IMG/VR virus record: IMGVR_UViG_3300020718_000010
Span: 27,035-91,034 of that record
DNA: 64,000 bases
Origin: a virus
Taxonomy: Duplodnaviria > Caudoviricetes
Direction: 5' to 3' (one strand)
Both the position numbers and the translations under genes were made by a program. A model generated the notes under the pieces. The model had not been told where the DNA came from. It worked only from the letters and a program-made list of their open reading frames with translations, and searched no databases. Below are positions 1 to 64,000 of this stretch, one piece after another. The number at the start of each line of letters is the position of its first letter. Positions within the stretch are counted from its first letter, which is position 1.

Positions 1-3000
1 TTGTAGGATGCAACAAAAGAACCTGCGTCGTGGTCGTAAATAAATGGAACGGGGCGAGTAACAACACCGGGCCCAGAAGATGTTCCTCTTACTGAGTCAA
101 AAGCAGAATAGGTAGAAACATTTCCTTCCCATACGTAAAGACCTGCTTTTGGAAAATTTAAATTGTTGTTGTAAAAACCGGCTTTTGGTTGCTGCAAGGT
201 TTTTAATTGACTATCTGTAATAAATACTTGGTTCCCAACAACATTAGATGGTTGAACTGAAAAAATAGAATTTTCGTAAACAAAGGTAGATACACCTTTT
301 GACAAATAAGAAACTAAAGTACTTGTACTATCAAGCGTAACGCTTGCTTGGTTTTGGTTTTGGAATATTTCTGGTGTTCCATTTGTTGCAAGAACTCCAG
401 TAAACGAAGCAGTAGCCGGTTGGCTCATTGTCAATATCAAACCAGAAACAGAAACAAGTGTTGTGCCAAGTGGAATTCCCGGACCGGTTACAGAACCACC
501 AATTGTAAAACCACCAGTTGGTGTAGATGTTGCTGTCAATTGAGTTGATGAAGCAACAATGTTTACTGTAAAACTTCCCGGGGTTGTTTTTCCTGTTAAA
601 ACAGTATTGGAAAGTGAAATTATGTTGTTAACAGAGTCAATGGCAGTTGCATAAGTGCTGAAGGTAACATTTGTTGGCCAAGCACCGGTACTTTGAGTTG
701 CGCCAAGGGAAACCGGTTTTGTTATGTTGATTCCAAAACTTCCACTTGGAATTGCCGTAAATGTTCCACTGAAAGTACCCGTTGGCATATTTGAGCCTGT
801 TGTACTTAAGTTAATTGTTGTCCCTACTTGACTTGCAGCAACTACAGCAGGGGATGTCGGGAGGGCTATGGTATTTCCATTTGAATCTTTACCACTACCA
901 GTTATAACTGCGCCGCCAGAAGGGAACGAAGAACCCGGACTTGTTGATGTTTTTGCAACTCCGGTGATAGAAAAACTTGCAGCAGTTCCACTTCCAGCAA
1001 TTGAAACAACGCCAGAATAGCCAAAGGCTTGATATATATAATCATCTACAATTCCATCATAAATACGTGCAAGAATTTGCGTTTGCCCCGCAGGGATTCC
1101 CGAATATGTCGAATTATAAAAACCACCAGCAAGATACTGGCCATTGCTTAATTTAAACCATGTAGCAACTTTTCTGTCGGTCATGTTTTTTGTAGCGTTT
1201 TTATTTACGTAAACGCCAGCACCATAAGGTATTCCATTTCCATCAGCAGAAGATGTTTGAGAATTTGGAACCGCAGCGTTTACAGAAAGAACTTTTGAGC
1301 CCCTTAATCCATATTGGTCACCATCATCGACAAAAGAAACCCCGTACCATTCTGATAAAGGACTTAAACCAAAGTTAAGAACTTCACCTGAAGCGTGATA
1401 GTTAATGGTTCCTTTGTTGACGCCTGTATTTAGGTATGCACCTTTATTTGACGTAGAAACAACAACAATTTGATTTTTTGCATATGCAGGGTTGTTTACC
1501 CCAGTATCAATAACATAAAATTCTTCAGGTCCAGCGCTTTGTCCAGTAGGTGGTGTCGGTGTAACACCATTGACGGTTCCCGGTAAAGAAAAAGTATCTC
1601 CGGGGTAAAAAATGGGACGACCATTAAATGTGTTTGATGTAATGGTTAAGACTTTTGAACCATTGCCAAGAACGGTTGTTGTTCCGCCTACTTTTAGTTG
1701 GAAACCCGCTGGGTGGTCAAAAACTGGAAAACCCCACCACATTGTTGGTGGTACATTAATGTTATTAAGATAAGCATCTTGATATGTTGTAATAGAGTGC
1801 GCCATTGTTGTTGCGCTAGTAAAGTAAATAGTATTACCACTAATAGAAGATACTTTTAAGACTTCGGAACCATTTGTGTTGTCAGTAATTGTTACGTATT
1901 GGCCCGCAGAAAGTCCGCTTGGCGCATAGGCAAGTGTTACAGATGTAGCACCAGAACTTACAGCACCAGATAATTGGCCAAATTGCGCATAACAAACAAT
2001 GGTGTCACCGTTGACATTTGCAATGGTAAGTGTCTCTGCGTTTGCACCACTACCAATTGTTATTTGTTGTCCTGATGCGTAGTATTGACCAGTTCCTGTT
2101 GTAACCGTAAAAACAGCGGGAATTCCTACGTAAGCACCCTCAGCGTAGTAAGACTGAAGGTAACCATTAAGGCCATAAACGTATCCCGGTGCAGCGTCTA
2201 CCCCGGTGTAACCAGAAAGGTTTACGTAGTCAAACCCAGCATATCCGGCGCCGCCAAATGTTGGTATAGCAACTCCACCGGCAACATAAAGGTCTGCGCT
2301 TCCTGATGCCCCCGCTAAGTTTGCATAAGCGTTTACAACTGAAGCATTTAAAGAATTTGTTTTTACAGCAACTGAAGTATCTCCTGCTTTGGCGGAAGCA
2401 TTTGGTAACGAATCAATTGTGCTGCTTGGGTATTCAGTAAAGGTAAAGGTTTCAGTTACATTTGTGGCGCTTAAAACAGTAATTGATTCCGCTAATTTTG
2501 TAGAGCCTGTGTAATAGTTGGCTTGGTTAAGCGTAATAATGTAATTGCTACCAGATTTTGTAACTGCAGTAATGTAGGTTTCAGTTCCTGTAATTCCACT
2601 GTAAAAGTAATTTCCAACAATTACTTGACCAACTTGTGGAACTGTACCTACCGTACCTTGCGTGGTTATTGTCTTTGACTGAGCAGTAAAATTACCGGCA
2701 AAAGATGTAGTAATGGTTGTTGTGGGTGTCTGACTTGTGGTGATAATTGTTGTGTTAAAAAATGAATCGTAAGACACGCTTGTTAGAGATGTTCCGGTTG
2801 GAATTTGTCCATTTGCATCTGTAACAATTGTTGAGAAAAGCGGCAAAGAAGTTAATGCAGTTATGTTCCCTGTAAAATAAATAGTTCCAAGTCCGGGTTG
2901 AAATCTTCCGTTGGGCACCACGGTTGGTGTATAAATTTCATTTGGTCCCTTTGTTAAAGTAAGACCGTTAGAACCAACCGTAGGTACAATTTCACTTGTT

Positions 3001-5747
3001 GTGTAAGAAGCGGCGGTGGTGGTAGTTGTAGATGTTGCACCAGCGGCATTTGCGGTTAACTTAACGTACGCATCTTTTGCTGCGGGAACGTGGCCCATTA
3101 AATTGATAACAGGCGATGCAGACATTGCATTTGAACCAGAATTTGTAGCGGTTGCAGTTGCAACAACGGCTGTACCAGAACTGTCAACCATTTTTATGGT
3201 TGCTGATGTTGGGCTTGCCCAAGTTACATCTCCAGCAACATTTGAAATAAGTGTTCCCGCAGGTATTCCAAAACCAACTAAAGAATAACGGAATGGCCCA
3301 GTTGCATATGTTTGGTAGATACCAGTTATGTCAGAACCGCTAACAGTAATTGTGCTGCTTCCTAGGGTTACGCTTCCATTAATTAAATAAGTTTGCGCCC
3401 CAAAACCAAGTCCTGAGTCAGCAAAATTTCCTGTTGCTTGAATTGTTGCGTAACTACCATCTGGATTTAAATACCAAGGCTCAGTAACAGATTGCAAAAC
3501 TTGTGTTGAAGCAGTCCCTGTGTATGTACCTGTAAATGTATATGGGTTATTGGTAAAAACCGGGCTTCCAACAGTTGTTCCGGAAGCAATGTAGCCTTTA
3601 TCGTCCGTGACAGCCATCCCAGAAACAAGATTTGCAATACTTGAACTGAATTGCCCCGTAATTGGTGGAATAATAATTCCTGTTGTTGAAGTGTTGTCAG
3701 ACGCTTGAACACGTGCTGCACTTGCAACCGGACCAAAAAGAGTTGTGTCACTTGAGTCTGAAACAGTTGGGTTTGTTACACCAATAAGAGCACTGTAATT
3801 AGTTGCGTCTACAAGTCTTGGGTTTGCACCGTAGTAGCCAGCATCTGTTGTGTACGAACCGGTAAATGGATTTGAACCAATGCTTTTTACCGTTGCGACA
3901 AGTGAAAGATTGCTAGTTCCGCTAAAGTCTTGAATTACAACTGGCATTACAAGTGTTCCGCCATAAACAGGATTATTAACCGGGTCTGAGTAAATGTATG
4001 GTGCTGTTGAAAGACCAGATGTAAATGTATTCCCACCCGAAGTGTTTAAAGTAAGGCTTTGCCCTGCGATGTTTGAGGCAAACGCCGTTGCGCTATTTAT
4101 TGTGTAATTAAAAGTGTAAGTGGTAGAAACCGTGTCGTTTACAGTTACATTGTTTGTAAGTGTTGAATAGGTGCCGTTACTACTAAAAATACTTGTGTGT
4201 GACACAACGCTAACTGTTCCGCTTGCGGTTGCAGAAGAACTTATTTTTACGGTGTTTGTTCCAACGCTTACAATCCAAGTTCCTGCAGGGATTCCCGTTC
4301 CTGTAACAACTTGTCCCGGGTTCAAACCGGTTACGCTAGAAACTGAAGTTAAAACGTTGCTTCCATTTGAGGTTGTTGCAGTGAAAGTCCAAGTTGGTAC
4401 GTTTGAGTTTCCCGTTCCAAAAATCATTCCACCAAGTGGATACCCAACAGAGAATGCGTTTGGTTGAAAAACATTTCCGGGCGATGCTGAAGAAAGTGAA
4501 CCCGAAAGCATTTGGCCAGTTTTTCCAGTTGCCGTAAACGAACTTGAGTATGGGAATGTGTATGTCCCACCTGAGGGTGTAGGAATTTTGTAAAGGTACG
4601 TACTTGTTGATGTGAGGTCAGTTGTAATGGTTGTGCCATTAATTGCAGTAATTACACCACCGTACCAACCAACTGGCTGGTAGTTATTTGGTGTCGCAAT
4701 GTTAAATACTGCAGTAAGTGTTTGGCCAGTAGAGAAGTTGCCCGCACTTGAAAGAACAATCGTAGTGCTTGAAGAACCAATGGTGATACTGGAAATTTGA
4801 AAACCTGAAGCCACAAAAGAAACACTTCCGTCAGCGTCGCTTTCTGCGGCCTCTGGAGAAATGACTGGGTACTGGGTTAATACAACCGATGTTCCGCTTA
4901 CCGAAGCGATGTGCGTCCCTGCCGTAATGCCGGGTCCAGAAACCATTTGCCCAACACTCAAACCAGTAATTGTGGGAACCGTCAAAATCTTTGTTACGTT
5001 TCCACTTGAATATGTAAATGTTCCAGAAAAAGCAACTGTATTAAAATCAGTAAGAATTGTTTCTAGGTTTGTTAAAGCCTTTGGGTCACCCGAACAAGAA
5101 ATGTAGAAAGGGTCGCTAGAGTTTCCACCAACATTGTCTGGTGTTGGTGGATTGACCAAGGGCGCATAGTAATTTGTTGAAGTGCCGCTAAAAGATGCGT
5201 TGTTTTGCATTACCGTTGCAGCAATTGCGCTTGGGGTATGTTGATAGTTATTAGAAGGAATCATTACTGCTGATTCATTCGCACCAGCAGCGTAAAGGTC
5301 AGTTGAAACGGTTGGAATCAACCCTTTAACTCCAATAATTCCGGTTTCAGTAACAAAACCATCAGTTGAGTACGAGGAAGAAGAATAAGGGGTTTGACCC
5401 TTTTTGAGGCCTTCCATTACTACCAGAGAATCACCAGCAGCAAAATTAGAAACATCTTCTACGTAAAGGAAATTGTCTCCGTAATTTGCAACACTTGCTG
5501 AGCCAGCACCGTCAAGAACAATGTTTGTTCCACCCCTAATAACTTGGGTTGAATATGAATTACCAGTAAGAAATTTGGTGATGTCTTCTACGTGAGCAAA
5601 GTGAATTGTGCCAGTGGAGTCATTAATTGTTCCAACTGCAAATTTTGTAAGGTCAGCAAGGGCGGCGGCGGCTCCCGATGAACCAACTACGTTCCAGTAA
5701 TCCGTGGTGATATTTGCAGCAACTGCTGTAGCGGTTAGTAGTTTCAT
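1..5747 (-). CDS. Very large tail protein directly downstream of the tape measure (tail tip / evolved distal-tail-like); 3' end runs off the window, at least 1,915 aa
   Basis: Not in the ORF track because no stop lies in the window. ATG at 5745-5747 gives MKLLTATAVAANITTDYWNVVGSSG; the same frame is open where checked (near 4870 VVLTQYPV; window edge TRPVPFIYDHDAGSFVASY). S/T/G-rich with repeated GxxVxGxGIxxGTxxxSVSG modules. Not every codon was checked by hand. Confidence 0.85.
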   Translation of the reverse strand, partial: MKLLTATAVAANITTDYWNVVGSSGAAAALADLTKFAVGTINDSTGTIHFAHVEDITKFLTGNSYSTQVIRGGTNIVLDGAGSASVANYGDNFLYVEDVSNFAAGDSLVVMEGLKKGQTPYSSSSYSTDGFVTETGIIGVKGLIPTVSTDLYAAGANESAVMIPSNNYQHTPSAIAATVMQNNASFSGTSTNYYAPLVNPPTPDNVGGNSSDPFYISCSGDPKALTNLETILTDFNTVAFSGTFTYSSGNVTKILTVPTITGLSVGQMVSGPGITAGTHIASVSGTSVVLTQYPVISPEAAESDADGSVSFVASGFQISSITIGSSSTTIVLSSAGNFSTGQTLTAVFNIATPNNYQPVGWYGGVITAINGTTITTDLTSTSTYLYKIPTPSGGTYTFPYSSSFTATGKTGQMLSGSLSSASPGNVFQPNAFSVGYPLGGMIFGTGNSNVPTWTFTATTSNGSNVLTSVSSVTGLNPGQVVTGTGIPAGTWIVSVGTNTVKISSSATASGTVSVVSHTSIFSSNGTYSTLTNNVTVNDTVSTTYTFNYTINSATAFASNIAGQSLTLNTSGGNTFTSGLSTAPYIYSDPVNNPVYGGTLVMPVVIQDFSGTSNLSLVATVKSIGSNPFTGSYTTDAGYYGANPRLVDATNYSALIGVTNPTVSDSSDTTLFGPVASAARVQASDNTSTTGIIIPPITGQFSSSIANLVSGMAVTDDKGYIASGTTVGSPVFTNNPYTFTGTYTGTASTQVLQSVTEPWYLNPDGSYATIQATGNFADSGLGFGAQTYLINGSVTLGSSTITVSGSDITGIYQTYATGPFRYSLVGFGIPAGTLISNVAGDVTWASPTSATIKMVDSSGTAVVATATATNSGSNAMSASPVINLMGHVPAAKDAYVKLTANAAGATSTTTTTAASYTTSEIVPTVGSNGLTLTKGPNEIYTPTVVPNGRFQPGLGTIYFTGNITALTSLPLFSTIVTDANGQIPTGTSLTSVSYDSFFNTTIITTSQTPTTTITTSFAGNFTAQSKTITTQGTVGTVPQVGQVIVGNYFYSGITGTETYITAVTKSGSNYIITLNQANYYTGSTKLAESITVLSATNVTETFTFTEYPSSTIDSLPNASAKAGDTSVAVKTNSLNASVVNAYANLAGASGSADLYVAGGVAIPTFGGAGYAGFDYVNLSGYTGVDAAPGYVYGLNGYLQSYYAEGAYVGIPAVFTVTTGTGQYYASGQQITIGSGANAETLTIANVNGDTIVCYAQFGQLSGAVSSGATSVTLAYAPSGLSAGQYVTITDNTNGSEVLKVSSISGNTIYFTSATTMAHSITTYQDAYLNNINVPPTMWWGFPVFDHPAGFQLKVGGTTTVLGNGSKVLTITSNTFNGRPIFYPGDTFSLPGTVNGVTPTPPTGQSAGPEEFYVIDTGVNNPAYAKNQIVVVSTSNKGAYLNTGVNKGTINYHASGEVLNFGLSPLSEWYGVSFVDDGDQYGLRGSKVLSVNAAVPNSQTSSADGNGIPYGAGVYVNKNATKNMTDRKVATWFKLSNGQYLAGGFYNSTYSGIPAGQTQILARIYDGIVDDYIYQAFGYSGVVSIAGSGTAASFSITGVAKTSTSPGSSFPSGGAVITGSGKDSNGNTIALPTSPAVVAASQVGTTINLSTTGSNMPTGTFSGTFTAIPSGSFGINITKPVSLGATQSTGAWPTNVTFSTYATAIDSVNNIISLSNTVLTGKTTPGSFTVNIVASSTQLTATSTPTGGFTIGGSVTGPGIPLGTTLVSVSGLILTMSQPATASFTGVLATNGTPEIFQNQNQASVTLDSTSTLVSYLSKGVSTFVYENSIFSVQPSNVVGNQVFITDSQLKTLQQPKAGFYNNNLNFPKAGLYVWEGNVSTYSAFDSVRGTSSGPGVVTRPVPFIYDHDAGSFVASY

Positions 5748-5783
5748 AGTGGCCCTACACCACTTTACCCTTAGTTTTTTTGA

Positions 5784-8225
5784 TTAGCGACCCATTGTTT
5801 TCAGGGTAAAACGAAGTTCCCTGAACTGCTGCTCTACGTGGTGCTTGATGTCGGCAACGGTGGCTGAGTCGGCGTTGCCGTTGATATTGATGGCAACTGC
5901 ACCCGGGTGAATATTGAGGGTTGAACCACGGCTTGACTGCATTGCACGCATACTTGAAAGGCTCATTACTGCCTCCCCGGCCTGCATCATCATTGGGACT
6001 TCTTTTCCAAATGGCCCCGGGACAATTCCTCCGCTGTGCATTTTGCCCTTTGGTTTTTCACCTACATGGGGAATTGTGCTTATTTGTACGGCGTGGCCGA
6101 GAATTGGAATCCAATTAGTTGCTTTATTCCAAAGGTTAATAATCAAATCAATCGCATCAATAAATCCGTTAATCATCCCATTCCACATAGAAGAACCAAG
6201 ACTGCTAATTCCGCTCCACAATGTTTTAAAGAATCCTAAAATTTTATTTATGCCTGTTGTTATTTGGTTCCAAGCCCAGTCAAAAGCGGCATAGACGCCA
6301 TGCCATACGTCAACAAAGACTGTTTTAATTGCCCTAAAGATATCAAGCCACATATTGATGTACATATGAATGTACTTATCGATGGCGGCAAAAATCATCT
6401 TTCCAAAATCAAGAATTCCCTGCCATACAATTTTAACTATTTTTAAGAATGTTTGCCAATGGGTGATGATAAGAGTAATTACCGCAACCGCCGCTATACC
6501 CGCAATTACCCATGGATTAAGAAGCAATGAACTAAGTCCACCAAGTTTTGAAGCAAGCCCCGCTACTCCACCAACATCTTTTACGACAGTGGTTCCGGCT
6601 TTTGCCGCCGCTTCGGTTGCCTCGGCTGCTGCCATCGCTTTTCGCATTTTCATAAATGCTTGTAATTTAGAAAGAAAACCAGCACCCTCTGCGGTTTGGA
6701 ACATAACAAATGCTGTTCGTAGTTTCCCTATTTTTCCAATTAAACCTATGATTCCATCTGCAACAAGGTTCAACGGACTTATAAAAAGTTTGCGGGTAAA
6801 CCATACTGCTGCAAGGACTTCAAGAATTCCCTTAAGTGGTCCTAGGTTCTTAGCAACCGTAGAAATAACACCAATTATTTTTCCAAGAACAACTCCAGAG
6901 AATGCAACCGCTGTAGCAAAAACGTTAATTAAATAAATAATTGATGGAAGAGCACCTGTTACAAGTGGCATTAATGCCACCAAAAGGTTTGCAATCGATG
7001 TGGCAAGTAGTGGAAGAACTGGTGCCATGGTTACAAATGCTTGTAACAATCCGTTCATCAATTTTTCTAATTGTTTGTTGTCTGCCATTTGTTTAAATGT
7101 TTTGGCAATTGCATTTACGCCAACCATTAAGTTTTTGCTAACCGCATCACCCATTGTGACAAATAATTTACCAAGTGGCCCTAATTTATCTCCGGAGCCC
7201 ACAAGTTTTGCAAAGGCATCAGCAAGTGGTGTAACAATTGCGGCAACCAATTGAATGAACGGTGTGACCATATTCAAAATTGCTGGAATTATAGAATTTG
7301 TCAACAGGGTAAGCAATGGCGCAAACGCATTAAAAATCTTACCCAATGCATTACCAAGTGTTTGAGCAACCTGTTTAATGGCGGTGCCCATAAAAGAAAG
7401 TACGGGCATAAGTGCTTGAACGACTGGGATTACTGCTTGTGCCAAAGAGTCAAAGATAGGAATAAGACCTAATCCAAGTGACTGCCAAATTAATTGAATG
7501 TCATTCTTCAAAAGGTCAATTGGACTTTGCGCACTTTTAGCAAGGTCTTTAGTGGCGGAGCCAATGTCACGCAACGCCATTTGTTGAGCCGCAAGAACAC
7601 CGTTTTGCTTTTCTGTATTCTTAATGGCTTGTTGTTGTGCGTTAGTAAGGGTGATTCCCATACGACGAAGTGCGCCCATTGATTTTGCAGGGTCTGCAAT
7701 CATGCGTGTCAACATACGGCTAGTAGATGAAATATTTCCACCAGTCACTTCAGCAATGTTGGCAGCATCTGTCAAAACGGTATTTAAACCGTCTTTCATG
7801 CCCTTTGTTGCATTCATTACGTCTTTGTTAGCAATAATGAAGTTTTGAGCACGAACAATGTCTGCTTTGTTAATACCGTTTTGAATTGATAGAGCCGTAG
7901 CCATTTGGTCTAGGCGCTGTGAATACCACCTAGTTGACTGCGCATTACCTTGTAATTCGTATTGACGTTGAAGGTTATTGTTTTTTACAAGTTGAGACTG
8001 AACCTTTTGAAGGTTAATAAGTTGTGATGCGGATTCAATGGCATGAGAGATTCCCACACCAACACCAACAACACCAATGGTGTTTTTGATAATTCCGCCG
8101 ACTTTGGAAAATGAGCCTTTAATTTGCTCTGCAGCCATACTGGCCGCTTTTTCAATGTCACTAAACCCAGATTTGGTATCGGTAGTGTCAAGTAGCGCTC
8201 TTAGTCGAATGTCAGTTGTTGCCAC
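5784..8225 (-). CDS. Tape measure protein (813 aa)
   Basis: Follows the tail chaperone; long Ala/Leu-rich helical body, W/F-periodic repeats and C-terminal MHSGGIVPG...PMMMQAGEAVM motif. Confidence 0.93.
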   Translation of the reverse strand: MATTDIRLRALLDTTDTKSGFSDIEKAASMAAEQIKGSFSKVGGIIKNTIGVVGVGVGISHAIESASQLINLQKVQSQLVKNNNLQRQYELQGNAQSTRWYSQRLDQMATALSIQNGINKADIVRAQNFIIANKDVMNATKGMKDGLNTVLTDAANIAEVTGGNISSTSRMLTRMIADPAKSMGALRRMGITLTNAQQQAIKNTEKQNGVLAAQQMALRDIGSATKDLAKSAQSPIDLLKNDIQLIWQSLGLGLIPIFDSLAQAVIPVVQALMPVLSFMGTAIKQVAQTLGNALGKIFNAFAPLLTLLTNSIIPAILNMVTPFIQLVAAIVTPLADAFAKLVGSGDKLGPLGKLFVTMGDAVSKNLMVGVNAIAKTFKQMADNKQLEKLMNGLLQAFVTMAPVLPLLATSIANLLVALMPLVTGALPSIIYLINVFATAVAFSGVVLGKIIGVISTVAKNLGPLKGILEVLAAVWFTRKLFISPLNLVADGIIGLIGKIGKLRTAFVMFQTAEGAGFLSKLQAFMKMRKAMAAAEATEAAAKAGTTVVKDVGGVAGLASKLGGLSSLLLNPWVIAGIAAVAVITLIITHWQTFLKIVKIVWQGILDFGKMIFAAIDKYIHMYINMWLDIFRAIKTVFVDVWHGVYAAFDWAWNQITTGINKILGFFKTLWSGISSLGSSMWNGMINGFIDAIDLIINLWNKATNWIPILGHAVQISTIPHVGEKPKGKMHSGGIVPGPFGKEVPMMMQAGEAVMSLSSMRAMQSSRGSTLNIHPGAVAININGNADSATVADIKHHVEQQFRELRFTLKTMGR

Positions 8226-59983: not shown

Positions 59984-60228
59984 TAGTTTGTTTCTTCAGC
60001 GTATTGAACTAAGTGGCTAAAAGGCTCAAGTGACTCAACTTTTGCCTTTAATTCAGCGTTTTCCTTAGTCAAAGACTCGTTCTCAGTCGCAAGACGGCTG
60101 AGCGTTTCCTTCTGAGAAAGGGCCATGCTGATTAGGGCATTGACATCTGAGGTTTCAGGCTCAACGCCCTGACCAACTTGACGCCAAACCTTGTCAGCAA
60201 GTTCGGTTAATGTTTGTGTCATATGCAA
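59983..60228 (-). CDS. Hypothetical coiled-coil protein (81 aa)
   Basis: RBS AGGAG; heptad segment LSRLATENESLTKENAELKAKVESL. Confidence 0.65.
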   Translation of the reverse strand: MHMTQTLTELADKVWRQVGQGVEPETSDVNALISMALSQKETLSRLATENESLTKENAELKAKVESLEPFSHLVQYAEETN

Positions 60229-60280
60229 CTCCTATGTAGGGGGGTTGGTACTATCCACAGGTTACCATACCCCTGTTGAT

Positions 60281-60673
60281 TTAAACAACACCTGTGTATT
60301 TCAGCCATGTTGTTGGGTTTTCTGCATCTGGCTCGTACTCTGTTTCTGTAACTCTGTTACATTTCGCACAAGTAATTTTTACGGTTCCAGCCTTTGGGCT
60401 CTTGATTCGCCAGTCGTGCTTGCATTGGCCGGGTGCTGATTTTGAAGTCAACTTAATGGCTCGTCGATAGGGGTCTCTGACTATTCTCCCGTCACTTTCC
60501 AATTTCATAATTATGGCGTGAATGGTAGAACTGCTTTTAATTCCAATTGCCCGGGCTATGTCTCTGAGCGATGGCGGATAGCCAAGTTCTTTCCAATGCC
60601 ACTCAATGTAACGAATTACTTCATCTGATTCGTAACGTTGACTTCCCATTATCTTCTTTTGTGTTTTTTCCAT
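60281..60673 (-). CDS. LexA-like winged-helix repressor with C-terminal Zn-ribbon and no peptidase domain (130 aa; start reassigned)
   Basis: VIRYI..HW...GYPPSLRDIARAIGIKSSSTIH.....LE..G.I.RDP...RAI matches the LexA DNA-binding domain; C-terminus CKH...CAKC. Confidence 0.8.
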   Translation of the reverse strand: MEKTQKKIMGSQRYESDEVIRYIEWHWKELGYPPSLRDIARAIGIKSSSTIHAIIMKLESDGRIVRDPYRRAIKLTSKSAPGQCKHDWRIKSPKAGTVKITCAKCNRVTETEYEPDAENPTTWLKYTGVV

Positions 60674-60679
60674 GTCAGG

Positions 60680-60709
60680 ATAGTAGCGCAAACCGAACAC
60701 TGTTCGCAA
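60680..60709 (-). promoter_or_regulatory. Promoter of the LexA-like gene (TTGCGA-N18-TACTAT) overlapped by palindrome CGAAC-N3-GTTCG
   Basis: -35 at 60704-60709, -10 at 60680-60685, ATG 6 nt later; palindrome at 60694-60706. Confidence 0.55.
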
Positions 60710-60710
60710 C

Positions 60711-60739
60711 TTGACGGGGGTTAGATACTCTGATAGACT
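60711..60739 (+). promoter_or_regulatory. Plus-strand promoter TTGACG-N17-TAGACT with extended TG
   Basis: -35 at 60711-60716, -10 at 60734-60739, TGA immediately upstream of the -10. Confidence 0.75.
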
Positions 60740-60745
60740 CACGCT

Positions 60746-60823
60746 GTTCTTGGGGGCGACTGCACACAACGCTAAGGACGACCCTAAATCCCGTTTGCCG
60801 AAAGGCGACGGGATTTAGTTTTT
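60746..60823 (+). ncRNA. Candidate ~78-nt trans-acting antisense small RNA
   Basis: Bounded by a near-consensus promoter and a terminator, both plus-oriented; no ATG-initiated or SD-preceded ORF; 12+8 nt complementarity to the leader at 62804-62830. The 5' end is estimated. Confidence 0.65.
60784..60823 (+). terminator. Intrinsic terminator, plus-strand orientation
   Basis: 11-bp stem CTAAATCCCGT/ACGGGATTTAG enclosing GCC-GAAA-GGC, followed by TTTTT only on the plus strand. Confidence 0.8.
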
Positions 60824-61294
60824 GGAAGACTCAAACCCGAAGGCTTCCCATTTTTCCTTTTTGGAAATGCGGTCAATTATTGTTTTGCCATCTAAGTGGT
60901 CAATCTCATGTTGGAAGATGCAGGCCTCTAAACCCTCTGCTTCCACTTCAATTGTTTCCCCGCTTATGTTTAGCCCAATCATGTGAACTTTGTCGTAACG
61001 TGGAATGTCCCAATATTTTTCAGGGATAGAAAGACATCCCTCTGTTCCAACCTGATGTCCACCCATTTCCAAAATCTGTGGATTAATAACGGCACGCAAA
61101 ACTTTGTCGCCCATCTCATAAACAAAAAGACGCTTGCTGATTCCAATTTGATTAGCGGCTAACCCTACGCCATTAAGTTTGTACATGACCTCGCCCATGC
61201 GTGCGATTACCTTTACAAGGTCTTCATTAATCTCTGTAACGTCATTTGTAGGCGTTTGCAGAACCATGTTCGGGTAGTGAACTATTTCAAGCAA
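60815..61294 (-). CDS. def: Peptide deformylase (start reassigned to TTG 61294; 159 aa)
   Basis: All three motifs present: GVGLAANQ, EGCLS, QHEIDHLDG; RBS GGGAG 5 nt before TTG. Confidence 0.95.
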   Translation of the reverse strand: MLEIVHYPNMVLQTPTNDVTEINEDLVKVIARMGEVMYKLNGVGLAANQIGISKRLFVYEMGDKVLRAVINPQILEMGGHQVGTEGCLSIPEKYWDIPRYDKVHMIGLNISGETIEVEAEGLEACIFQHEIDHLDGKTIIDRISKKEKWEAFGFESSKN

Positions 61295-61520
61295 AAGTAC
61301 TCCCGTTGTACTGTTTACGAATTTCTTCAAAAAGGTCGGCAGCAAAATGGTCTACATCTTTGTAATTTTCTTGATGAACAAAAAGCCTGCTTGCGGCAAC
61401 CATAAAACAGTATGTCAAAAGACAACGCTCTTCCATAGAATTATCCATGAGATTATTAATCGTATTATTTGCTGCTTCCAATTCATATTGCAGCGCTTGT
61501 ATTTTTTTTCTCTTGCTCAT
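61287..61520 (-). CDS. Hypothetical protein (77 aa)
   Basis: Overlap-coupled on both sides. Confidence 0.6.
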   Translation of the reverse strand: MSKRKKIQALQYELEAANNTINNLMDNSMEERCLLTYCFMVAASRLFVHQENYKDVDHFAADLFEEIRKQYNGSTFA

Positions 61521-61687
61521 AGATTTCCCATCTGGTCATACTTTGCTGGAACTTTTCCCTTGTACGGAGCACCATTGAATTCTGCAGTAAATGCAAAACG
61601 TTCAGCACAAACAGCGCACATCACGTACGTCTTGGCACCCATGTTCATGAGCAACCATTGGTGTGGTTTGGTGCAGGCTTTAGCCAT
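61517..61687 (-). CDS. Small Zn-finger-like protein (56 aa, not in ORF track)
   Basis: MAKACTKPHQWLLMNMGAKTYVMCAVCAERFAF...GNL; purine-rich RBS GGAAGAGGA; ATGA overlap with the next gene. Confidence 0.65.
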   Translation of the reverse strand: MAKACTKPHQWLLMNMGAKTYVMCAVCAERFAFTAEFNGAPYKGKVPAKYDQMGNL

Positions 61688-61805
61688 TCCTCTTCCACCT
61701 ATTTAATAATGATTTTTTGTCGTTGGCGTAATAAGTCTTTCGCCATTTCGCCCACTTAGTTTCCATTAAGGCAATCTTTATTTCTCGTTCTAAGCGGTGC
61801 TTCAT
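61680..61805 (-). CDS. Small basic protein (41 aa, not in ORF track)
   Basis: MKHRLEREIKIALMETKWAKWRKTYYANDKKSLLNRWKRNG; fills the gap, overlapping both neighbours. Confidence 0.5.
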   Translation of the reverse strand: MKHRLEREIKIALMETKWAKWRKTYYANDKKSLLNRWKRNG

Positions 61806-62035
61806 TCTGATGGAACCTTCTCGCTGCTCATCAAAGCCTTCGCTTCAATTGCGTCATTCTCCCAGTCTTCAAGAGTTCCAAGCCTAACCATTGGTAGGCA
61901 TAGAGCGTCATATTCACCGGTCTCGCAGATTTCTATTTCTGTTTCGCTTAACGGCGCACCATCGTGCACCTCGCAAAACTGTGGTGAACAGAACTTGTTT
62001 TCAATTCCGTATTTGAGCCATTCAAGTAAATCCAT
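61802..62035 (-). CDS. Hypothetical Cys/His-containing protein (77 aa)
   Basis: RBS AAGGGGAAG; CSPQFCEVHDG...C...C.PMVRL. Confidence 0.65.
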   Translation of the reverse strand: MDLLEWLKYGIENKFCSPQFCEVHDGAPLSETEIEICETGEYDALCLPMVRLGTLEDWENDAIEAKALMSSEKVPSE

Positions 62036-62103
62036 CTTCTTCCCCTTATTTCTTGGTGAACAAGAAGATACCAGAACTCAGGCTTAAATGCCAGTAATTA
62101 TTA

Positions 62104-62736
62104 TCAAGAGCAGCCGTCTGTCCATTCAGGGTAGAAGCCGTTATTACGGTTGTAGAACCAAACCGCAACTGCTGATTGCTGCTGCGGAGTTGCCGCCATT
62201 GCCGTTGGTGCCTTTATACCTAAAGCCGATGCACCAAAAGTCCAAAGGTAAGGGAGGAATTGATAAAGCCCCTGAGCACCACTAGATACGTTTACCGAGT
62301 TGGGGTGATTACGACTTTCGGTGTAACGAATGCAGGCAAAGATTTCCTGAACGCTTAAAGGAAGGGTATGGGTTGGGTCATCTGCCGTTGGCTGATAAGC
62401 GGTCTTGTCGTAAGTCCATGTCCACCAAAGTGCTTTTCCAATTTTGTACGTATCATCGCTTGAAGCGCTGGCGTGCATGACTGGCCCCGGGCGAACCGGT
62501 CCACGCTTTGTTGGAACAAAAAAAGACGGAGTTGGCGCCAAGGCCATCGTCGTAGTTGTCACGGGTGCCGCAATCGTGGTTGTAGGCGTTGATAGCGCCG
62601 ACTGGTCATAGGCAATAGTTATTGTGCCTTGGGACGTGTCCGACCCCGCAGCGACAGTGTGTTGGTTGACAAGATTGGTAAAGAGACCAATCGTCAAAAC
62701 GAGTGCGAGGTAACCTCCCCGCACTGCACCTATCAC
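62104..62736 (-). CDS. Secreted Rpf-like / lysozyme-fold transglycosylase (210 aa)
   Basis: N-terminal hydrophobic signal ending TVAA; Thr/Pro/Ala linker; FACIRYTES...GAQGLYQF...W...ATPQQQ..VA catalytic domain with paired Cys. Confidence 0.85.
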   Translation of the reverse strand: MIGAVRGGYLALVLTIGLFTNLVNQHTVAAGSDTSQGTITIAYDQSALSTPTTTIAAPVTTTTMALAPTPSFFVPTKRGPVRPGPVMHASASSDDTYKIGKALWWTWTYDKTAYQPTADDPTHTLPLSVQEIFACIRYTESRNHPNSVNVSSGAQGLYQFLPYLWTFGASALGIKAPTAMAATPQQQSAVAVWFYNRNNGFYPEWTDGCS

Positions 62737-62810
62737 GAGCCTGCCTTGATAGAGGAATAGGACAAGCCGTTTATTTGTAAACGGTTAATGCTGATGGTGT
62801 TGTTGCACAC
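62733..62810 (-). CDS. Upstream leader ORF (25 aa) coupled to the transglycosylase; an alternative 7-aa uORF MQQHHQH lies at 62785-62808
   Basis: Perfect SD AAAGGAGG (62815-62822) precedes GTGTG; the 25-codon frame ends in TGA overlapping the hydrolase GTG (GTGA). Confidence 0.5.
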   Translation of the reverse strand: MCNNTISINRLQINGLSYSSIKAGS

Positions 62811-62846
62811 AACGCCTCCTTTGGACGACCATTGGGGGTTCGATTA

Positions 62847-62875
62847 AGGTTATCAAACGGTGAACGATAGGTCAA
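62847..62875 (-). promoter_or_regulatory. Promoter TTGACC-N17-TAACCT with extended TG
   Basis: -35 at 62870-62875, -10 at 62847-62852. Confidence 0.75.
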
Positions 62876-62910
62876 CTACCGCCGTAAAAGCCTTTATTTA
62901 AAAGGAAATA

Positions 62911-63042
62911 CTAAATTTGCCTGAGGGCTGCTTGCCAAAGGTTTTCGCCATATTTCTCGGCATCTTCTTTGGACATTCCGGAAAGCACTTCTGCTTTAAT
63001 TGCTTCAAGGTCAAGTTCTAGTGGCTTGTCTTGCTCTGTCAT
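62911..63042 (-). CDS. Small acidic protein (43 aa, not in ORF track)
   Basis: MTEQDKPLELDLEAIKAEVLSGMSKEDAEKYGENLWQAALRQI; ATGA overlap with the upstream gene; RBS GAGGA. Confidence 0.65.
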   Translation of the reverse strand: MTEQDKPLELDLEAIKAEVLSGMSKEDAEKYGENLWQAALRQI

Positions 63043-64000
63043 TTTGTAATCCTCATCGTGTAGTAATCGGGCGTCCCAAACTTGTCGTAATTCCAGTCTG
63101 TTGGGGCGTACTGCGGGTCAAACGAATTCTTGCTTTCTACCTCAAAACCTAACTTGCCATACATAACTGGTAAGGCGGGTCCAAAGCATTCTACGTAGTT
63201 GACCCCGTGGTTGTCAATGGCGTTTTTTAGCAATTGGAGCCCAGCACCGGATTCACCATTGTTAAATAGGGCCGTAGCCTCAATTCGGCCGTCACCGTGG
63301 TCATGAATTAATAGGCCGGTTTTGCCATCTGCTGATAGGAGCGGCTTCATTCCCTCGCTCTTCATTTCCTCAAGGCTGTAGTGATTCACAAAAGCCGAAA
63401 AGGGGCTGCCCGCAAAAGCCTTATCGAAAGATTCTTTAAAAGAACTTAGGCTTGCTGAACCTTGCCCCCCGGTCCACTGGTTTCCATGAAACTCGTGCCC
63501 CGCCACGTCGCCCTTTGCAACAGATAAAACTTTTTCTACCACCGCTTTTATAAGTCTTGCCTGTTTTTTGGTGACGGTAGTTGTTGGGCTGTAACTGCGT
63601 AAAAAGTCTGCAAATTTGTCGGCGCCGCCTTCTGGAGAAAGAATGTACGTGCTTGCGTGGTCCACCACAAAAGGTGTTGCTTCAATTAATTGCTCGCTGT
63701 ATTTGCCGTCGGGCATTTGGAATCCGTATTTTGTTAGAAGTTCGTGTTCATTCTGAACTCCTTCGGCATCAAGATAACGGTCTTTTCCAATTTGAACAAC
63801 AAAGTGCTGAACCATTGGTGGGCGATTCGCCTCTGCGTACGACTGCAAGTGGGTTTCGCTGCTTGTTACAATTGCCTTCATTTGACCATTTGGATAAAGT
63901 TTTTGAATGGCTTGGGCCACCACTAAGCATCCACCGGCTGTTGGGTAGTTCCCGGTATTTCCAAAAATCTCAGCAAGTTTGTCTAGTGCGCCCCTACTGT
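63039..64000 (-). CDS. Multidomain protein, 5'-truncated: papain/transglutaminase-like domain + GNAT-like domain
   Basis: Frame is open to the window edge; GGCLVVAQA...QHFVVQIG...LDAEG triad; linker KGDVAGHEFHGNQWTGG; GAGLQLLKNAI...VECF...L...YGKLGF. Confidence 0.7.
   Translation of the reverse strand, partial: SRGALDKLAEIFGNTGNYPTAGGCLVVAQAIQKLYPNGQMKAIVTSSETHLQSYAEANRPPMVQHFVVQIGKDRYLDAEGVQNEHELLTKYGFQMPDGKYSEQLIEATPFVVDHASTYILSPEGGADKFADFLRSYSPTTTVTKKQARLIKAVVEKVLSVAKGDVAGHEFHGNQWTGGQGSASLSSFKESFDKAFAGSPFSAFVNHYSLEEMKSEGMKPLLSADGKTGLLIHDHGDGRIEATALFNNGESGAGLQLLKNAIDNHGVNYVECFGPALPVMYGKLGFEVESKNSFDPQYAPTDWNYDKFGTPDYYTMRITK

Follow-up and report, generated by a model that had tools for sequence, protein, structure and literature searches.

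What might a plus-strand promoter and terminator be doing in a stretch of phage DNA in which every gene-like open reading frame (ORF) of at least 90 aa lies on the minus strand? The question is raised by one short locus in the window analysed here, a stretch of 64,000 nucleotides that forms the last 64 kb of a 91,034-bp IMG/VR record (linear, ~72% complete) and comes from an uncultured freshwater phage. An earlier note on this DNA had proposed that the locus encodes a small RNA and that this RNA clamps the ribosome-binding site in the leader of a cell-wall hydrolase gene about 2 kb away. Comparison with related phage contigs leads us to think that the locus probably encodes an antisense RNA that covers the start site of a leader ORF and thereby silences a transglycosylase-like enzyme in trans.

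In the direction of transcription of the gene strand, the order of elements is a 294-aa gene, a 43-aa gene, a promoter with a short leader, the leader ORF (25 codons), the 210-aa transglycosylase-like gene, three small genes, the peptide deformylase gene and a 140-nt gap, followed by a gene for a LexA-type winged-helix protein (60673-60281) and, further on, by a PD-(D/E)XK nuclease gene. The coordinates of the features discussed below are collected in Table 1.

A predicted RNA gene opposite the gene strand

The small RNA module was traced by exact-protein look-ups and nhmmer, and it was found directly after the deformylase gene in five lineages, namely that of the window (G000), G002, L053, L078 (a G001-type lineage) and the more distant L084; the deformylase or transglycosylase proteins of the other lineages are 48-62% identical to those of the window. 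All five share a promoter layout of a -35 box, 17 nt and a -10 box, with TTGACA and TAGACT, TAAACT or TAGGCT in the relatives. The G002 module consists, on the plus strand, of TTGACA, 17 nt, TAGACT and the conserved string CACGCT(C)GTTCTTGGG, followed by a variable stretch, ACACAACGC, a further variable stretch and the same hairpin and T-run, and the L084 module has TTGACA, 17 nt and TAGGCT and the same two-hairpin RNA shape (z = -5.0). Among G000, G002 and L078 the module is 76-84% identical, as compared with 52% for the next 100 nt (non-coding), 58-65% for the deformylase coding DNA and 63-68% for the transglycosylase coding DNA.

Strain variants carry the module as well. They comprise L055-L060, L082 and L083 for the window lineage (L082 and L083 being strain copies of the window) and L061-L064, L080 and L081 for G002, and the third lineage is represented by short contigs only (L053 and L054). 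A rearrangement breakpoint lies just upstream of the -35 box in L058/L059, and the module therefore appears to move as a unit; the sequence at the breakpoint resembles that upstream of the -35 box in G002 and L053. One G002-type variant, L064 (1346-1458, minus strand), a 2-kb contig that does not extend to the leader, shows a G-to-A change inside the RNA core, from ACAACGCC to ACAACACC.

The small RNA promoter is also found by a consensus scan. The RNA is predicted to fold as two hairpins at -33.8 kcal/mol (z = -4.9 against shuffles), and homologous RNAs fold with z = -3.5 to -5.0 against shuffles. The stop codon of the deformylase gene (60815-60817) falls within the intrinsic terminator. Read on the minus strand, the terminator hairpin leads into GGGTCG, and the T-run stands on the plus strand only, as it does in every lineage that carries this terminator hairpin. 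Pairing is kept on the plus strand in 90 of 90 cells (15 pairs in six distinct sequences); four pairs vary and all of them stay paired, three by G-U wobble and one by a double change from U-G to G-U. Because these wobble pairs become A-C mismatches on the gene strand, the hairpin is less stable there, and when folded from that strand it is weaker by 1.9-8.3 kcal/mol in every lineage. The terminator of L084 differs in that a longer hairpin is followed by TTTATT. A small ORF on the gene strand at this locus was considered and rejected, as its length and frame vary across lineages (9, 27 and 30 codons).

Stem-loop 1 presents the anti-start sequence in its loop (17-18 nt across lineages). Its stem is complete in the window, with eight of eight pairs (two of them G-U), and forms 7/8, 7/8, 6/8 and 7/8 pairs in the other lineages. 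The 5' arm varies among lineages at its first base only (T in L084), and for this reason the stem offers no double-sided covariation. The two changes in the 3' arm of the window are wobble-compatible, whereas G002 has one change and L078 two that disrupt pairing, so that the sequence support for stem-loop 1 is moderate. Overall, the proposal of a discrete plus-strand RNA gene amid minus-strand genes holds up as a prediction through the conserved promoter and the plus-only terminator in relatives, and the promoter, terminator, 12-mer, 8-mer and TTGGGGG block each lie exactly where the earlier note had placed them.

No match was returned by blastn of 60200-63100 against the phage collection, nor did protein patterns of the LexA-type protein or of the deformylase retrieve anything from viral contigs, and over 60000-63500 there was no Rfam match at E up to 1. 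The promoter DNA pattern retrieved from viral contigs only G002 and one further match (in L008), which falls in coding sequence and was dismissed as a chance hit. The terminator pattern retrieved only G002 from viral contigs; 11 matches in bacterial genomes are unrelated palindromic hairpins, and nhmmer found the module in none of them. Profiles run with nhmmer gave no module copy in G003 (75 kb), G004, L029/L044, L031-L036, L040, L045 or L047. A 9-mer of the L029 leader recurs 6 kb away within an exonuclease gene, and this repeat was set aside as chance. The 95-kb G002 phage record in IMG/VR is part of a 130-kb metagenome contig, L039 (Ga0316221_1000079), and must therefore have been trimmed.

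Complementarity to the leader of a transglycosylase-like gene

For each RNA, the single-stranded part was searched against its own gene strand outside the RNA's own locus, and complement start positions were counted from the first base of the codon at which the leader ORF starts. In each of the four lineages with both sites in sequence, no exact complement in trans is longer than that in the start region of the leader ORF: 18 nt starting at -7 in G002, 13 nt starting at -6 in L078, 12 nt starting at -5 in L084 and 12 nt starting at -5 in the window, where it is tied with a coding 12-mer. The complementarity spans -5/-7 to +6/+10 of the leader ORF start, and these complements of 12-18 nt, which begin at -5 to -7 in the four lineages, fall inside the ribosome footprint, taken as about -20 to +19. 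In 400 shuffles of the G002 RNA, a match of 14 nt was never attained. Complementarity to the start region of a leader ORF coupled to a transglycosylase-like gene, as the earlier note had claimed, is therefore kept in relatives, with one compensatory change.

Target scans were made by RNAduplex and by exact match. With RNAduplex, no trans site in the genome scores better than the leader in G000 (-41.3, against -36.2 for the runner-up) or in G002 (-43.7, against -33.9), and within the L078 locus the leader again ranks first. By exact match in the window the leader only shares first place, since a second 12-nt complement at 4202-4213, which overlaps the core shifted by 3 nt, lies inside a giant ORF (3-5747, minus strand); in the window the leader is thus favoured by duplex energy and tied by length of exact match. 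The second complement is compatible with chance, as judged from the shuffles described below.

There are just two copies of the 12-mer in the whole 91-kb record. Along the gene strand, the leader reads CCCCCAA, one base, the 8-mer, the Shine-Dalgarno sequence AAAGGAG(G) and the 12-mer, which opens with the last Shine-Dalgarno G and spans the GTG at 62810-62808. In the other lineages a single block of 12-18 nt reaches the last 1-3 bases of the Shine-Dalgarno sequence. The 8-mer has no counterpart in the RNAs of G002, L053, L078 and L084, and its position in the leaders of other lineages is the loop of a hairpin (GTAA, GCGA, GCAA and others). A clamp that holds the Shine-Dalgarno sequence from both sides, as originally pictured, is thus retained in relatives as far as the start-site block is concerned, whereas the 8-bp block belongs to the window lineage only. 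Similarly, the TTGGGGG block, which had been noted as a third match to the 5' end of the leader, measures 7 nt in the window and in L084 but is shortened to 6 nt in L078 and to 5 nt in G002; since it belongs to the near-invariant 5' arm GTTCTTGG, it may be conserved for some other reason. A further lineage, P0122, has a transglycosylase 86% identical to that of the window, and its leader (L076/L077) equals that of the window in the paired region and also carries the 8-mer.

A single position varies in the core of the complementarity. In the window lineage, leader and RNA gene alike have G there, and in G002, L078 and L084 the two sites both have C, so that the two sites read ..TGTGCA in the former and ..TGTCCA in the latter three. 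Read from the aligned sequences, this is one compensatory event. The varying base is located in the loop of stem-loop 1 in the RNA and in the loop of a start-codon hairpin in the predicted leader fold. This arrangement fits loop-loop recognition between the two molecules, a model for which the leader fold itself has a z of about -0.9, not better than shuffles.

The leader ORF and the enzyme gene are closely joined, as the TGA of the former overlaps the GTG of the latter (62736-62734) in a GTGA. The same GTGA/ATGA stop/start overlap is present in G001/L078, G002, G004, L029, L031, L040 and L041/L084; G003 has a single fused frame instead. In addition, the region upstream of the enzyme gene is conserved beyond the level predicted from protein identity. 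The nearer lineages (G001/L078, G002, G003 and L041/L084) share CCCCCAATGG, a variable stretch of 6-7 nt, AAAGGAGG and then CGTTGTG, with AAAGGAAGGT in place of AAAGGAGG in L041/L084. The overlap and this upstream conservation in relatives indicate that the coupled-leader arrangement is real and old.

The target protein consists of a hydrophobic N-terminal segment, a Thr/Ser/Pro/Ala-rich linker and a C-terminal domain with an invariant ESRNHP motif, inside which an invariant Glu is found in the aligned relatives. Matches to PF06737 (Rpf-type; E = 4e-4, 21.4 bits, below the cut-off of 27) and PF01464 (SLT; E = 1e-3, 19.1 bits, below the cut-off of 21.3) are accompanied by a match to a PHROG transglycosylase family (E = 1.5e-5). 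PF06737 also matches five of five aligned relatives (E about 3e-4), and three remote homologues, P0140-P0142, carry it in a precomputed table. A PDB sequence profile search with the target protein found nothing; its AlphaFold model is of low confidence (mean pLDDT 49), with RpfB as the best, though not significant, Foldseek match (E = 1.7). Protein searches place homologues at 45-69% identity in other uncultured phage contigs. Since a hydrophobic N-terminus is followed by a Thr/Ser/Pro/Ala-rich linker, the protein is likely to be an exported or membrane-anchored muralytic enzyme.

Several further features of the leader and its promoter were observed. The target promoter has the form TTGnnn, 17 nt, and TAACCT, TAAACT or TAGGAT in relatives; across lineages it shows TCAC at a fixed place in the spacer together with an unusual -10 box (TAACCT/TAAACT), a feature that could reflect a phage-specific class of promoter or the binding of a factor. 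The part of the leader before the Shine-Dalgarno sequence (62823-62838 of the window, minus strand) has the conserved CCCCCAATGG, a loop and CCAAAGG, a hairpin also seen at L004 3908-3925, L005 3733-3749 and L084 6069-6086, often with a GNRA tetraloop (GTAA, GCGA, GCAA). The first two G of the Shine-Dalgarno sequence can pair with the CC of this hairpin. The element may be a small regulatory hairpin, with a folding energy no better than that of shuffles. The leader ORFs (18-25 codons) encode a weak N-terminal peptide motif, Asn/Ser-x-Asn/Ile-Val-Ser-Arg/Lys, which is found in the window (62733-62810, minus strand), L004 (3936-3998), L078 (5942-6004), L006 (233-307), L029 (about 5939-5998) and L031 (about 5738-5794). 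A near-identical nucleotide string, AACGTAAGTA, occurs in the leader ORF of L029, L031, L040, G004 and L045 and is kept there although the RNA gene was not found in them; this points to a possible independent role for the leader ORF.

Table 1. Positions in the window of the predicted small RNA, its proposed target and the adjoining genes
Feature	Position	Strand	Details
Small RNA promoter	60711-60739	+	-35 TTGACG 60711-60716, 17-nt spacer, TG 60731-60732, -10 TAGACT 60734-60739
Predicted small RNA, ~78 nt	60746-60823	+	5' end inferred (60743-60746); 3' end at T-run
Stem-loop 1	60746-60779	+	5' arm 60746-60753, 18-nt loop 60754-60771, 3' arm 60772-60779
TTGGGGG block	60750-60756	+	second copy at 62832-62838
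12-nt block complementary to leader ORF start region	60761-60772	+	second copy at 62804-62815; counterparts of 18 nt in G002, 13 nt in L078, 12 nt in L084
Second complementary block, 8 nt	60776-60783	+	complementary to 62823-62830; window lineage only
Intrinsic terminator	60784-60823	+	15-pair hairpin 60784-60818 and TTTTT 60819-60823
Target mRNA promoter	62847-62875	-	-35 TTGACC 62875-62870, 17-nt spacer, -10 TAACCT 62852-62847; start near 62840, inferred
Leader region with RNA-complementary blocks	62804-62838	-	CCCCCAA 62838-62832; 8-mer 62830-62823 in small hairpin
Shine-Dalgarno sequence of leader, AAAGGAGG	62822-62815	-	adjoins 12-mer 62815-62804
Leader ORF, 25 codons	62733-62810	-	GTG start; TGA stop 62735-62733
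Transglycosylase-like gene, 210 aa	62104-62736	-	Pfam and PHROG matches, motif
Peptide deformylase gene, convergent with small RNA gene	60815-61345	-	Pfam PF01327, E = 5.5e-47; start per gene callers 61294 (159 aa)
LexA-type winged-helix gene (130 aa) with promoter	60281-60706	-	ATG 60673; Pfam PF01726, E = 1.8e-11

Weighing the explanations

According to the favoured reading, an RNA of about 78-90 nt would be made from the strand opposite all genes, from its own sigma-70-type promoter, and would end at the intrinsic terminator abutting the deformylase stop codon. The loop of its first hairpin would pair with a site 1.8-3.5 kb away on the gene strand, from the last base or bases of the Shine-Dalgarno sequence to about codon 3 of the leader ORF. 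Ribosome entry at the leader ORF would be blocked and, given the overlap between the stop codon of the leader ORF and the enzyme start codon, the enzyme would also be shut off. We infer transcription of the RNA, its pairing in the cell, repression and the coupling mechanism from comparison of the sequences.

Several observations weigh against this reading. A complement of at least 12 nt is reached somewhere on the gene strand by 5.5% of shuffled window RNAs; taken alone, a complement of this length is thus not rare and is weak evidence, which corrects the earlier note, where a chance near 1e-3 or less had been put forward. Promoter-like sites occur in the region at chance density (8 found against 7.2 expected). 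In the L084 locus, two GC-rich imperfect duplexes outscore the leader in RNAduplex. At +9, a position on the duplex edge, the L078 leader carries a G-to-A change without compensation, and the L078 RNA matches the leader of G002 better than its own (16 against 13 nt). The covariation of the two sites that the earlier note had proposed as a check is thus present in part, as a core that is perfect in four lineages with one compensated change, but it amounts to one event among the four lineages with both sites and fails at +9 of L078. Moreover, L029, L031 and L040 keep the leader ORF, with no RNA gene within 6-7 kb, and the leader core GCGTTGTG is also conserved in G003, in whose 75-kb contig (60% complete) no RNA gene was found, so that part of the leader conservation is independent of the RNA. 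Finally, the two sites are direct DNA repeats, and a common origin by duplication is likely. However, the position of the 12-mer at the start site, the colinear 8-mer and, above all, the conservation in relatives argue that the pair of 12-mers is not random.

The duplication itself is suggested by the direct repeat in the DNA and by a Shine-Dalgarno-like remnant beside the shared block in G002 and L078, and the RNA gene may well have arisen from a duplicated copy of the leader. This history might lead one to think that the RNA, although real, acts in cis, either as antisense to deformylase read-through or as a convergent promoter and terminator that insulate the downstream gene, the leader match being a mere relic. 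Any gene-strand transcript across 60746-60823 would be fully complementary to the RNA, and read-through is likely because the gene-strand hairpin lacks a T-run; the gene-strand copy in G002 and L078 also keeps, 5-6 nt ahead of the shared block, AGGAG/AGGA, which points to an old leader copy. A relic would decay, however, whereas the core has stayed perfect where the neighbouring non-coding DNA has only the 52% identity given above, its single change is compensated, and the flanks have gained lineage-specific matches, such as the 8-mer in the window and the 18-nt extension in G002. Repeats of 12-18 nt that lie 1.8-3.5 kb apart are, in addition, very short for recombinational homogenisation, which counts against a relic. 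We therefore consider a purely cis-acting RNA quite improbable.

It is very improbable, in our estimate, that both sites serve as recognition sites of one protein, be it the LexA-type DNA binder or an RNA-binding translational repressor, without antisense pairing. Both copies do lie in non-coding DNA upstream of minus-strand genes, and a DNA-binding gene adjoins in the window, but the shared block is not palindromic and ranges from 12 to 18 nt across lineages, the operator-like palindrome of the locus is a different sequence (60694-60706), most lineages lack an adjacent LexA-type gene, and the conserved plus-strand promoter with its strand-specific terminator would be left without an explanation. 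That the locus has no function at all, and merely combines chance promoter-like and terminator-like sequences with a chance repeat, could draw on the shuffles, on the other complement at 4202-4213 and on the density of promoter-like sites; conservation of the module in five lineages above the flanking coding DNA, the same orthologous target and the 18-nt match in G002 make such a coincidence hardly credible.

If the RNA does repress the enzyme in trans, the question follows of how repression could later be relieved. One speculative route is that gene-strand read-through from the deformylase gene hits the RNA promoter and supplies a perfect complement to the RNA. This would lead to a hitherto undescribed lysis or cell-wall timer with the RNA at its core, a tentative possibility that we place on the unlikely side, in which early RNA closes the leader by loop-loop contact until rising transcription of the deformylase gene collides with the RNA gene, sponges the RNA and opens the enzyme, with the G/C loop base acting as a specificity determinant between co-infecting relatives. 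Were this so, a strong, host-type promoter would make the RNA early and a signal-anchored muralytic enzyme would stay untranslated, and the G/C specificity would be as in plasmid incompatibility groups.

Known antisense RNAs and the neighbourhood of the module

The predicted RNA shares features with known antisense RNAs and also differs from them. The c4 RNA (~77 nt) uses short blocks to pair with the ribosome-binding region of icd, the translation of which is needed for ant. Like c4 in the icd-ant system, the predicted RNA would be a phage RNA directed against a small upstream ORF with a coupled gene behind it, and it would act away from its own locus. Whereas c4 is cut from a same-strand transcript upstream of its target and serves lysogenic immunity, the predicted RNA has a promoter of its own on the opposite strand, is encoded 1.8-3.5 kb downstream of the target and would control a muralytic-type enzyme. 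The c4 RNA, from the immI operon of phages P1 and P7, is an antisense RNA needed for full repression of ant (Citron and Schuster 1990, as cited in PMC8198154). The C4 RNA family is among those for which Rfam gave no match in the search described above.

Sok of plasmid R1 blocks the mok leader ORF coupled to hok, with recognition through a loop. The predicted RNA is similarly antisense to the start of a coupled leader ORF; however, Sok is cis-encoded and fully complementary and acts on a small membrane toxin, whereas the predicted RNA is distant from its target, pairs over 12-18 nt and faces a 210-aa enzyme-like protein. With its gene ~2 kb from the target, a protein of 210 aa and no Rfam match, the pair stands outside type I toxin-antitoxin systems, and the labels "toxic gene" and "switch" used earlier are analogies. 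The absence of an Rfam match, the promoter of its own on the opposite strand and the distance from the target place the predicted RNA outside both the c4 and the Sok families.

The sar RNA of P22 and OOP of lambda are, as far as is known, both encoded directly opposite their targets. They resemble the predicted RNA in having their own promoter and terminator on the opposite strand, and sar covers the ribosome-binding site of ant, but the overlap of the predicted RNA with the deformylase gene is limited to the last bases of that gene, and the leader proposed as its target lies at a distance. A review of phage RNAs gives these antisense RNAs as 68-77 nt long, although its table lists sar as trans; it also describes PAK_P4as15, an antisense RNA at the endolysin gene of Pseudomonas phage PAK_P4 with a proposed role in lysis delay (PMC12197685). 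In PAK_P4as15, as here, a phage RNA is proposed to restrain translation of a cell-wall-degrading enzyme, although that RNA acts in cis, is about 550 nt long and overlaps the gene, and no leader ORF or trans pairing is described for it. DicF and PreS are trans-acting phage or prophage RNAs directed against host ftsZ and dnaN (PMC12197685). Short imperfect pairing at an mRNA start region is common to these and the predicted RNA, but they target host genes, whereas the best match of the predicted RNA, which is also conserved, is in the phage's own genome. The same review lists no RNA that is distant from a phage target gene and regulates it in trans (PMC12197685). As far as the alignments allow one to judge, the predicted RNA represents a new family of sequences, unmatched in Rfam, in which a known mechanism would take a new arrangement.

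The phage small RNAs known to date are few, and this candidate has a clear, conserved target and natural compensatory variants by which the decisive pairs of mutants are specified. If the favoured reading is true, it adds RNA-level control of a muralytic enzyme to phage biology, and the stop/start overlap of the leader ORF provides a simple, testable case of translational coupling as a regulatory relay. Furthermore, such RNA candidates can be found in uncultured phage genomes by comparative analysis alone.

The LexA-type neighbour deserves separate mention, as the earlier note had wired the small RNA to it. This link is not sustained, since the adjacency is not conserved across strain variants and lineages: the gene adjoins the module in some strains of the window lineage only. 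In L058/L059 a 99-aa gene with its own strong terminator (L058 1183-1640) lies between the two, and the LexA-type promoter and palindrome are intact there as a separate unit; in L078 the LexA-type gene is 160 nt away behind a different promoter without the palindrome; and in G002, L053 and L084 a different gene of 157-174 aa, with no assigned function, follows the module. By Pfam, the protein has the winged-helix domain only, without a peptidase domain. Its mRNA is probably leaderless, because the -10 box sits 6 nt before the ATG. No integrase (PF00589) was found in the 91-kb record (~72% complete). The palindrome at 60694-60706, within the promoter, travels with the gene; its centre is 3 nt in the window (CGAAC-N3-GTTCG) and 4 nt in G003 (CGAAC-AGGC-GTTCG; L012 about 1417-1430), and we take the G003 form to resemble a Gram-positive or actinobacterial SOS box.

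Finally, the interval between the transglycosylase-like and deformylase genes varies in its content of a DNA methyltransferase cassette. The window has none, G002 carries an N6/N4 methylase on the gene strand (L004 4667-5746), and L078 carries two C5-methylase ORFs on the opposite strand (6618-8107, minus strand).

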